NCBI GenBank assembly: GCA_964016885.1
Contig: OZ024742.1
Location: 343,170,001-343,234,000, forward strand
From: Eledone cirrhosa
Taxonomy: Eukaryota
Direction: 5' to 3'
Length of the DNA stretch: 64,000 nucleotides
The translations under genes and the position numbers were made by a program. Below the pieces are notes generated by a model that saw only the letters and a list, made by a program, of their open reading frames with translations, made no database searches and had not been told where the DNA came from. How positions within the stretch are numbered: position 1 is the first letter of the stretch; each line of letters starts with the position of its first letter. Shown here piece after piece: positions 17,915 to 35,681 of the stretch.

Positions 17915-21782
<3,868 letters not shown>

Positions 21783-21784
<2 letters not shown>

Positions 21785-22632
21785 ATGAGAATAAACGTGC
21801 TGCGTGGTTGCTAATGGGTTACATATGAATAAAGTTAGTCCTTCATCAGTGATCTTCCAACCATCATTGGTATTTCATCGCTTTAAAGACCATATACCTC
21901 CGGTTGGTGCGAGAAACGGCTAAAAATAGTCGTTGGGACACGTAAATAAAGGGGACACGAGAGTATAAACAAACAAAGATGGTGAAGCAACGAAAAGTGA
22001 GGAAGAAGGAGTCAAGTCCCAAATTTCCATGAATATAAGTTCGGTGAAATCGTGAACGAGAGAGAATAAAGACCATCAAACCTGGTTGGAATGTGAGCAA
22101 GGAAGGAATTCCGTACAGGTCTAACGGGAGGAAGAAGGGATCTAGTCTGTGAATTCGGTGAACGTAAGTTCTGTGAAATCGTAGACGAGAGAGAGAAAAA
22201 AAAGTGACCTGCCTGACCAAGGGTGCGAAAGAAAAGAATTACGCACAGGTCAAACGGGAAGAAGGAGGAGGAAGAGAGGTAGTAACAGAGAGTGAGTGAG
22301 TGAAGGGTGAGGAAGAGGCTAACAGAGAGAGTGACTGTTAGAGAGGGTAAAGATACAGAGAAAGAGGAAGCAGTAAGAACGAAATAGACGGGTCATAGTG
22401 GGGGAAAAAATATGTGTAAATATGAGAATAAACGTGTTGCGTGGTTGCTAATAGGTTACATATGAATAAAGTTAGTCCTTCATCAGTGATCTTCCAACCA
22501 TCATTGGTATTTCATCGCTTTAAAGACCATATACCTCCGGTTGGTGCGAGCAACGGCTAAAAAAAGTCGTTGGGACACGTAAATAAAGGGGACACGAGAG
22601 TGTAAACAAACAAAGATGGCGAAGCAACGAAA
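21783..22632 (-). repeat. Diverged relative of the 494-bp unit: 637-bp period with about 212-bp direct repeats (21783-21994, 22420-22632), each holding the same motif
   Basis: ggta-TA^tggtcttt-aaagcgat-GAAA-tacc-..-gaagatca-CTGATGA at 21830-21898 and 22467-22535. Confidence 0.8.
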
Positions 22633-23109
22633 TTAGGAGCGTACAGGACAAAAACATTGGAAAAAACAACGGAAAAACGGACAATCCCATCTCCTCAGTC
22701 AACCTCTGGGAATCATTAAGGTCGGTGTATTAAAGTTGATACCATTCACTACCGTGCGTAGTAAACAAGTAGAGACAAGTTATGCCGTTAAACGAATTAC
22801 ACAAATATAGGAGAAAAATCATCCCAATTACGTCAACGTACAGTTGTACGTGAGGAATTAGTCAAGGAAGAAAAAATATAGAAAGAAGAGAAATAGTAAA
22901 AGATGAGAATAAGGACTGTAGCCCAACGTCCATATAAAAAAGAATGACACTAAGGCGTAGAAAAAGTAAGAAGGGAGAATAGAGGAAGACAGATCGGGTG
23001 GTGTGATGTTTATTATTGGCAGTATCGGTAGAGCGTCGGACACCATGCTTTGCAGCAAAGAGTTACGGCCCTTTATGGTCTGAGTTCAAATCCCACCGAG
23101 GTTAACTTT

Positions 23110-24848
23110 ACTTGTACTTGTACTTGTGTCGACATTCACTCTGGACGGGTTGAGCCGGCTTCTTCTCTTGTCCTGACGGCATCTCGAAACATGGCAGCCC
23201 ACGCACGACGGTCCCGGGCTAGGTCACTGGAGATAGCGAGCCAGTCACGGTTCCATCGGCGCAGGCAGACCACCTGCGGACCTGAGAGTTCGGAGAGGTC
23301 CTCCTTGATCGCCGTTGCCCAGGTCTTCAGCTGCCCGCCAACGTGCTTGCGCCAGTTAGGGAGTGGAGGTGGAAGGAGAACATCACCGATCAGCTCACCC
23401 TCAGGGCGCCGGGCCGCGTCACCAAACCATCTCAAGCGCCGTTGCAGCAGCACTGAAGGAAAGGGTCGAAGATTCAGGCGAAGACGAAGACTGGTGGTAG
23501 GTACCCGATCAACGCGTCTGCAGCGAAGAATGCAGCGGAGACAGTCATTATCGAAGACCTCCAGCCCCCGTTGATCGATTACTCTCATAGGCCATGTTTC
23601 ACAGCCATAGAGGAGGATAGTTCGAACGACGGCCTGGTAGATTCGCCCCTTGGTCGCCGAGGTGATCTCTCTTCTGTCCTACAGACACCGCTGCAGGCGC
23701 CCAAAATCGGATCTGGCAGCACCTATGCGACGCTTGACCTCGGCTGCGCCCTGTCCCGTTGGAACCACTGTTGAGCCCAGGTAAACGAAGGACTCCACAT
23801 CCCCCAGGTCCACGCCCTCGAGAGATATTGGTTGCCAGGCATCAGGCGAGACCAGTGACGTCACGACTTGGCGGCATTGATTCGTAGACCAACAGCGGCG
23901 GCTGCAGTGTGCACTCTTTCGAGAGCACCCTGTACATCCGTCCCGTTAGCGCCCATCAGCACGATGTCATCCGCGTAGGCCAGGTCCGTCACCACGACCC
24001 CTCTCCCGCTGTGTTGAGAGTGTAGTCAATGGCGTAGTTAAAGAGAGTTGGCGATAGCGCACACCTCTGCCGAACACCGGTCCCAACATCGAACGACTCC
24101 GTCTCCCCACCATAGACCCTCACTCGAGCCCGAGTCGACAGGTAGTAGCCTTGTATGAGATGAAGCAGCTTCACTGGGATGCCGTCCGCCTGCATTATAC
24201 GCCATAGGGCTTGCCGATCTACCGAGTCGAAGGCAGCTGCAAAGTCGATGAAGCAGAGGATGGTAGGCTGTTGATGTGCCCACCGTTGTTCCAGGACACG
24301 CCGGAGAATGAAGATTTGATCAACGCACCCCCTCCCCGGACGGAAGCCGCTCCGAGAAGAACGGGTAAGGACATCACGGATGGCCTGGAACCTCTTTAGC
24401 AGAAGAATTGCGAAGGTCTTGGCAGCAACGTCAGTTAAACTGATACCTCTGTAGTTGGAACACAGTTTCCTGTCGCCCTTTTTGAAGAAGGGTAGGAGAG
24501 TTGCCTTGCTCCAGTCACCAGGGAACCTCTCCGTCACCCACACCGAGGAAAAGACTCGATGGAGCCAAGCTGCGAGGACATCAGGCTCGGCCTTGTAGAC
24601 CTCAGCTGGAACACCATCCTCGCCCGGCGCCTTGTTATTCCGGAGATGTTTCAGGACACCACGTACCTCCTCGACCGTTGGAGGGGCAGTGCTGCATCCG
24701 TATTCTTCTCCGGAAGGCTGCACGTAGGTTGGCGTGGATGGTGGCGGGTGGTTGAGCAGCTTGGAGAAATGGTCCCGCCATCGGACTAGCCGGTCATTAA
24801 GATTGGTAATGACCGCCCCGTTCCGATCACGGATCGTCTCGCTGATAC
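23110..24848 (-). mobile_element. 5'-truncated GC-rich RTE-clade LINE with (CAAGTA)n tail, inserted in a SINE
   Basis: KAPGEDG..NYRGISL..GFRPGRGCVDQIF..FIDF.AAFDSV..LSPTLFN..YADD and RRLRWFG. SINE sequence is present on both sides with a diverged target duplication ccgaggttaacttt/ccgaggtaaacatt. Confidence 0.9.
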
Positions 24849-24872
24849 CCGAGGTAAACATTGCCTTTCATC

Positions 24873-35060: not shown

Positions 35061-35394
35061 ATATATCTATCTATCTATCTATCTATATATATATATATAT
35101 ATATATTCCCCCATTTCGAATATATATATATATATTCGAAATGGGGGACGCACAAGACAAAGACAACGGAAAAACGGAGTCCCCATTTCCTCAGTCAACC
35201 TCAGGAAATCACTTCAGACACACACATATATAATAATAATGAAATTATTGTGTAAAGTGCTCAGGTGCACTACAACTCGTCAAAGGTTGTCAGGGAAGTG
35301 AATAGTGTATGTGTCATGATATACATGTGTGCGTGTGTATGGAGGGGGAATATTAGGTGTAGTGTTGACGAATCTATACAACAGTATATGTGTA

Positions 35395-35445
35395 CGACAG
35401 TACATATTCTAAAATTGGAACGATACAAAGATTAGCATGGCCCCT
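35395..35445 (+). pseudogene. U6 snRNA pseudogene fragment
   Basis: cagtacatattctaaaattggaacgatac-aaagattagcatggcccct matches the U6 5' half. The ACAGAGA box is damaged and the 3' half is missing. Confidence 0.8.
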
Positions 35446-35681
35446 ACCCAACAAAACATAAATCCATATAATGTAACAATTATAAAAAATATTTATCCTG
35501 TCGGATTAAAGAAAAATTGTTTAAATATACCCCTGTGCTGTTTATACACACATATATAGAGAGAGAAGGAGCGACATGATTTTATATATATATATAACAA
35601 AGGAATTGTGGTAAGGAACCAGATGGACCATAACGCACCAGAGTACTCAATACTTAGAGTAGTAGAGTGGGAAATAGGAAC

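Follow-up and report, generated by a model that had tools for sequence, protein, structure and literature searches.

We suggest that three families of repeats, stacked head-to-tail on the minus strand of the window (the whole 64-kb stretch of DNA analysed here, to which all coordinates refer), are short non-coding mobile elements with a type-SGC core predicted to be self-cleaving and to fold inside a single unit, and that they are likely copied into TA-rich DNA in the manner of Naiads; on balance we consider this reading as a whole rather probable. In all three families the blocks of a hammerhead follow one another within about 70 nt in the order cleavage site, GAAA, CUGANGA, which is that of type SGC. 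Judged from the sequence, the repeats would represent a type-SGC-like hammerhead, differing in stem II and in the helix between stems I and II, on a retrozyme-like carrier without the type I order. The three hammerhead-like sequences quoted in an earlier sequence-only reading were all found on the minus strand, at the places it had given.

The stack occupies 18235-23016 (-). Family 1 forms a tandem array (18235..21784, -) of about 7 units of 494-498 bp, with seven identical and intact cores and one that is 5'-truncated; its 3' end passes into (CT)n and then (TA)n. Family 2 is represented by an insertion (21783..22632, -) of one 637-bp unit plus 213 bp, which is 94-97% identical to other full units (BLAST) and carries no long ORF (longest ATG frame 70 aa). 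Its two cores, copy A (21842..21907, -) and copy B (22479..22544, -), lie 637 bp apart, in agreement with the 637-bp period read earlier, but the duplication covers only 213 bp (6 differences), so that family 2 amounts here to about 1.3 units and not to a long array. For copy A, in which the blocks stand in SGC order, the pairings are based on covariation and cleavage on analogy; the predicted cut falls at 21893/21892, as previously proposed, and that of copy B at 22530/22529. Family 3 (22630..23016, -; about 390 bp) is an old copy, 72-77% identical to its best relatives over most of its length, and its core (22691..22754, -) is decayed, with a cut that would lie at 22740/22739. A fragment of a very common tRNA-like SINE (23015-23113, +) abuts the family-3 5' end, and a broken RTE-like LINE (23136-24867, -; RVT_1 E 2.9e-19, clade judged by eye) has a short AAGTAC-repeat tail whose end adjoins the SINE; these elements upstream of the stack were judged to be unrelated neighbours.

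The architecture can be followed in copy A, all on the minus strand. A closing helix, P0, joins GUCC (21939-21936) to GGAC (21841-21838) and spans 21838..21939, with an upstream hairpin (21934-21915) of which variants occur among copies. There follow P4 (5' strand 21907-21902, 3' strand 21862-21857), a candidate kink-turn (non-bulged strand 21901-21899, bulge and GAU 21868-21863), stem III (5' strand 21898-21894, 3' strand to 21869) and stem I (5' strand 21892-21887, 3' strand 21855-21850). The 5' strand of stem I leads through a 9-nt linker to position 11.1 (21877) and GAAA (21876-21873), its 3' strand to CUGAUGA (21849-21843) and position 10.1 (21842). The identical spacings of 16 nt from site to GAAA and 23 nt from GAAA to CUGANGA reported for the three families do hold, in family 3 once the loss of AA is allowed for; the first is made up of stem I (6), the linker (9) and position 11.1, and the second of stem III (4), the bulge (3), GAU, P4 (6), 1 nt and stem I (6).

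Pairing was evaluated in 139 copies out of a sample of 146 for which GAAA, RTGAT and CTGANGA were the sole selection criteria, 7 being dropped for a microsatellite on their 5' side. Paired cells made up 82% in stem III, 86% in stem I, 78% in P4 and 76% at 10.1-11.1, versus means of 65, 68, 57 and 56% in mismatched-half controls, the maxima of which over 500 trials (70, 72, 61 and 65%, in the same order) all stayed below the observed values. Seven clusters keep the helices with differing sequences. Further to that, a covariation alignment of 83 rows (81 of the 119 distinct cores, with the 5' side intact by eye, and the two window copies) had 91.8% of its cells paired, against 26-48% in slid registers, and two-sided changes at 16 of its 18 pairs; U16.1-A15.1 never changes type (80 of 83 rows). 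Related copies are not independent, and these pairing counts are thus not to be read as probabilities. The central claim that compensatory change conserves a rearranged hammerhead is therefore borne out by pairings that covary across subfamilies above both the mismatched-half and the slid-register controls. Two of its corollaries need correction. A stem I of 7-8 bp had been proposed, but the conserved stem is 6 bp long, with a seventh position paired in 48% of copies and an eighth that uses a G belonging to another helix; and the statement that structure, not sequence, is conserved goes too far, since the families are homologous in sequence (families 1 and 2 agree at 50 of 66 core positions and are 68% identical over 224 bp downstream).

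An intact GAAA is the normal state of family 3. The window copy lacks the AA of GAAA, as had been noticed, and GAAA is intact in 14 of the 22 listed relatives (29 were fetched), the remaining ones having a G-to-A change (7) or one A missing (1). The window copy has 83% identity to its best genomic match; because two As are lost and P4 is broken, it is a dead one.

Several features of a hammerhead are present in the repeats, namely CUGANGA, GAAA, a U-H site and stems I and III abutting the core, but a multi-pair stem II closed by G10.1-C11.1 is not. Stem II consists of the one covarying pair 10.1-11.1; a conventional longer stem II was rejected, its second pair (11.2-10.2) forming in only 18% of copies, and only 16 of 139 have G10.1-C11.1, the usual pair of hammerheads. 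In one cluster there may be an additional A, with stem II made up of two G-C pairs. A helix like that of Eckert et al., between the strands that precede stem I and follow the core, would be possible in family 2 and not in family 1, and was also rejected; the first of these strands pairs upstream as P4 and the second as P0. The hairpin of P4 and stem III is favoured by ViennaRNA (0.98 and 1.00 in family 2, 0.54 and 0.46 in family 1). In P0, the GGAY that follows the core has its partner in an RUCC located about 44 nt before the site, and the RGGAC singled out earlier thus reads as one arm of this helix. Among 65 copies scored, the combinations were GTCC/GGAC in 49, ATCC/GGAT in 13, ATCC/GGAC in 1 and others in 2, a covariation owed for the most part to a few lineages; in family 3 the helix is 6 bp long and lies 23 nt upstream.

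Between stem III and P4, the conserved AUGAU (in family 3, GUGAU) lies opposite an upstream U-G-A, and is likely to be the bulged strand of a kink-turn capping stem III. The primary sequence has the corresponding layout, with a 3-nt bulge, G.A and A.G, and two covarying helices; RTGAT itself was part of the search pattern, and the upstream G-A, which lay outside it, occupies the kink-turn positions in 88 of 139 copies, with U-A, matching a known non-standard form of kink-turn, in 12. Standard kink-turns (Kt-7, U4, box C/D), as described in the accessible parts of PMC3884654 and PMC3985660, share with the repeats the 3-nt bulge, G.A, A.G and a further non-standard pair, and the U at 2n that makes the kink-turn non-standard in two of the seven clusters is common in Kt-23; unlike those, the present candidate, recognised by sequence only, would cap a hammerhead stem III. 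In a subfamily with 22-nt spacing (7 loci, by eye), AUGAU seems to be paired normally, replacing the kink-turn, and an extra insert lies upstream.

The core is far more frequent than its controls. In the 3.0-Gb genome, GAAA-N5-ATGAT-N13-CTGANGA has 13,290 exact matches versus 5 for the reversed control, and the GTGAT form, many of whose matches are family 3, 864 versus 0, giving 14,154 versus 5 for both forms together. Spacings of 20-23 nt were searched genome-wide, and those of 20-22 nt returned only 265 matches versus 9 in the control. Within the window, an SGC descriptor including stems III and I found 9 sites, all on the minus strand, whereas 200 dinucleotide-shuffled windows gave 1 site in total; the refuting condition named earlier, equally good pairing in shuffled sequence, thus fails. 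A loose pattern with shorter site-to-GAAA spacing was noise (2,772 matches versus 2,621 in the control). Rfam gave no hammerhead match in the window, either at gathering or at E up to 5, and its weak box C/D snoRNA matches (E 1.6-4.5) were rejected because it is with the upstream strand, not with CUGA, that the bases following AUGAU covary. Viral contigs contained 0 matches to the full pattern and metagenome contigs 16, which we attribute to chance because none has both stems paired. The contigs of eight DNA-type or unlabelled runs differ in coverage: the core is covered by those of coded organisms A, C and D, in part by those of B, F, G and H, and hardly at all by that of E.

Type SGC (HRIMA-1 and its variants) is a non-circular permutation whose cleavage was validated by Eckert et al. 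(2023; PMC10085705); it was found in metatranscriptomes and, in the accessible parts of that paper, none is placed in the genome of a known organism. According to the same parts, it possesses a genuine stem II as well as a helix that links stems I and II, and needs both in order to cleave, and the search patterns demanded CUGAUGAG or CUGAUGAUG, CGAAA and at least two more stem-II pairs, so worded that the three window families fail them. Block order, core nucleotides and the direct link between stem I and GAAA are common to type SGC and the window repeats. In contrast to the multi-pair stem II and stem I/II helix of the former, the latter have a one-pair stem II without that helix, a stem III that is prolonged by a 6-bp helix beyond a likely kink-turn, and a closing helix with one arm upstream of the site. 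They do not fit the circularly permuted hammerheads either, whose local orders are CGS, GSC and SCG (types I-III). The minimal hammerheads of Penelope-like elements, as far as described in the available text of Cervera and de la Pena (2014; PMC4209133), resemble the present ones in that variants lie at element ends and many divergent subfamilies occur per genome, but have type I order, a long helix II with G10.1-C11.1 and almost no helix III, the opposite of the long helix III and almost absent helix II of the repeats.

We propose that stem III and P4 would form first, as a hairpin, which the kink-turn (3-nt bulge, G.A, A.G, U.U) would bend, bringing the strand that comes out of P4 to stem I. 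The 3' strand would then pair into the hairpin loop, forming stem I, and P0 would close the whole, likely stacking on the lone stem-II pair and taking the place of the missing helix II. By cutting after UA or UC, the core would reduce multimeric transcripts to unit-length RNAs, and a Naiad-type Penelope-like retroelement likely copies the repeat RNA into TA-rich DNA. Alternatively, the core might be a domain-swapped dimer, in which the site and GAAA of one unit combine with CUGANGA of a neighbour, cleavage needing tandem or paired transcripts and the wiring still being non-circular. We regard this as unlikely, while acknowledging that animal Penelope-like element hammerheads are thought to act as dimers and that the elements are often tandem or inverted. 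In addition, P4 is joined to stem I by one nucleotide, which suggests that the two helices stack coaxially, and the angle of a kink-turn, about 50 degrees, would be compatible with a ring of two cores, ring closure within one unit looking tight by rough reasoning. Stem III is nevertheless long and stable here, unlike in dimer-dependent minimal forms, and single-copy type-SGC constructs cleaved during transcription, as stated in the accessible parts of Eckert et al. (2023; PMC10085705); the fixed 23-nt spacing is compatible with the dimer and the single unit alike.

Folding within one unit thus remains our preferred reading, and its predicted activity is challenged by a stem II of one pair in which G10.1-C11.1 is rare. 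These same features, 10.1-11.1 being mostly non-G-C, could indicate that the fold is a handle for a protein (a retroelement protein or 15.5K), with weak or no cutting; many Penelope-like hammerheads show low activity in vitro, and no cleavage was obtained with 8 of 9 dimers of Xenopus retrozymes. We nonetheless find such a handle very unlikely. The cleavage site lay outside the search pattern, and U followed by A, C or U is kept there in 114 of 139 copies, G being rare (5 of 139); the constancy of U16.1-A15.1 (80 of 83) argues in the same direction, as do some truncated copies that start at the predicted cut. The latter emerged from a check of places where a TA run lies at most 12 nt from one subfamily's linker, all among the first 100 of 221 matches, which yielded 43 places with 14 intact and 29 truncated copies. 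Five of the 29 begin at the predicted cut with no matching dinucleotide in front of it, and 6 are ambiguous, compared with 2 at the six neighbouring positions (-1, +1 to +5; both at +4/+5), and 1 of the 29 keeps upstream letters. The commonest TA-joined start (15 of 29) is +6/+7 nt after the cut, where there is TA microhomology. These truncation points hint weakly at cleavage in vivo, the comparison being post hoc and the numbers small, and in a broader scan of the 146 pattern-selected copies starts did not clearly accumulate at the cut. For an anole Penelope-like element, hammerhead cleavage was dispensable for insertion in vitro.

As carriers, the repeat units (390-640 bp, non-coding, tandem, one ribozyme motif each) are reminiscent of non-LTR retrozymes, which in the accessible parts of Cervera and de la Pena (2020; PMC7229834) and Li, Clavereau and Pollet (2026; bioRxiv 10.64898/2026.07.22.740005) are likewise non-coding tandem units of a few hundred bp and low GC with one hammerhead each, and are proposed there to be non-autonomous partners of Penelope-like elements. 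Those retrozymes differ in having type I hammerheads and circular RNA that has been shown, whereas the repeats have SGC order and were analysed here as DNA. Shared targeting, which the stacking had suggested, finds support in the flanks: (TA)4 or more stands within 150 nt after the core in 109 of 129 array-terminal copies, versus 31% of random windows from the same loci. Repeat copies also form 13 head-to-head versus 2 tail-to-tail pairs, which, like the TA flanks, is a hallmark of Penelope-like elements. TA flanks and inverted, 5'-truncated copies make the repeats similar to Naiads, for which (TA)n targeting and tandem and inverted insertions are described in the accessible parts of Craig et al. 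(2021; PMC8557442), but they are common to other Penelope-like clades too.

A closer link comes from the Naiad ends themselves. Craig et al. report Naiads without a canonical hammerhead and mark 8 entries 'HHR_half_core' (PMC8557442, accessible parts). We surveyed by eye the last 330-420 nt of 47 consensus entries from the available supplement of that paper and found the complete SGC arrangement in 11: Bfor (with a weak stem I), 3_Chem, Amil, Aacu, Anas, 2_Movir, Plae, the entry before Sdum, Esco, Obim and Ovul. In the Octopus elements Naiad_Obim and Naiad_Ovul the 3' ends have, by eye, the same fold; they keep the 23-nt spacing and the kink-turn, carry a hairpin upstream that resembles the one seen here, and have 13 nt after the site instead of the 16 of the window repeats. 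Five nematode Naiads (1-3_Nbra, Hcon and Hpol) have a CSG arrangement. To the eye, these nematode ends are type-CSG hammerheads with a full stem II, the end of Naiad-1_Movir is a twister-like motif, and several Naiads of bivalves, hemichordates and hydrozoans have a further conserved 3' motif in common.

We conclude that the fold is likely the ribozyme reported missing from Naiads, and that its origin in Naiads, as read from these ends, appears well supported. Naiads encode protein and the window repeats none, and our searches for Naiads, which used narrow exact patterns, found no autonomous element with the SGC motif in this genome. A Naiad peptide pattern had 5 matches, 1 of them a decayed Naiad-type RT, and the decayed lineage comprises 30 loci, 69-76% alike; the SGC motif is absent downstream of it (a profile search of the flanks gave nothing at E below 2). 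At 4 of its loci there is a common G-rich 3' segment ending at (TA)n, without the SGC motif, which may be a different structured RNA. No Naiad-type RT occurs in 143 motif-bearing loci, a short Naiad 3' motif had 12 genome matches versus 14 in the control, a further Naiad motif search was empty, and neither long ORFs near motif copies nor 50 loci around GIY-YIG matches had a fixed link to the motif. It may be that the fold came from Naiads while the abundant C-terminal-endonuclease Penelope-like elements now mobilise the repeats: these have long open frames in this genome, the Naiad-type copies found are decayed ones only, and the family-1 arrays are very young. We hold this to be somewhat unlikely, considering that C-terminal-endonuclease elements carry hammerheads of canonical order (three loci), that the SGC motif has no fixed position in them, and that the narrowness of the exact patterns used for Naiads weakens the argument from their decay.

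How the three families came to be stacked is best approached through their ages. Head-to-tail order and microhomologies of 3-4 nt at both junctions could have resulted from one-event joining by template switching of a single reverse transcriptase, as had been suggested. The junction of family 3 with family 2 (22630..22632, -; TTT) lies a few nt short of the usual family-3 3' end, and that of family 2 with family 1 (21781..21784, -; ATAT) at the usual family-2 3' end. At the same time, family 3 is decayed and at least 17% from its best match, while the family-2 copies differ by 2.8% (6 of 213 positions) and family-1 units by 0-0.8% (0-4 of 494). The three blocks differ in age, and joining in one event is therefore not supported and seems to us highly improbable, a switch from 2 to 1 being less firmly excluded than one from 3 to 2 because family 1 could look younger than it is through array homogenisation or assembly. 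The stack would be better accounted for by elements inserting one after another into TA-rich ends, family 3 likely having been followed by family 2 and then family 1, each at the AT-rich 3' end of its predecessor.

Within the literature searched, outside whose coverage most subscription papers fall, the term 'type-SGC' occurred only in Eckert 2023, and the fold was not reported from animal genomes or Naiads. Previously, non-circular hammerheads came from environmental sequence only, type SGC being without a host; a high-copy family in an animal genome, with natural compensatory variants, provides a host, a likely job and ready constructs. If the present reading is true, it fills a stated gap, that of Naiads without canonical hammerheads and with 'half cores' left unexplained; it would also mean that an outside helix and a kink-turn can support a working hammerhead whose stem II is a single pair, and that entire classes of genomic ribozymes escape standard descriptors. 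More tentatively, and as a possibility short of an even chance, non-circular hammerheads may be normal in Naiads across animals (SGC in ctenophore, cnidarian, acanthocephalan, spider and cephalopod families, CSG in nematode families), and the closing of the core by a kink-turn could here allow host 15.5K/Snu13 to switch cleavage, making this a natural protein-gated ribozyme in over 14,000 copies.

Two other features of the window were observed. Beyond the family-1 array, in the same TA run, lies an inverted repeat with 66-bp arms (17997-18132) that matches 23 fetched loci; its core at 18063-18086 (+) has CUGAAGA, a short stem and GAAA on the plus arm, in canonical order, and it is probably the end of another Penelope-like element. 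A U6 snRNA pseudogene-like match (49 bits) is located at 35384-35485 (+).
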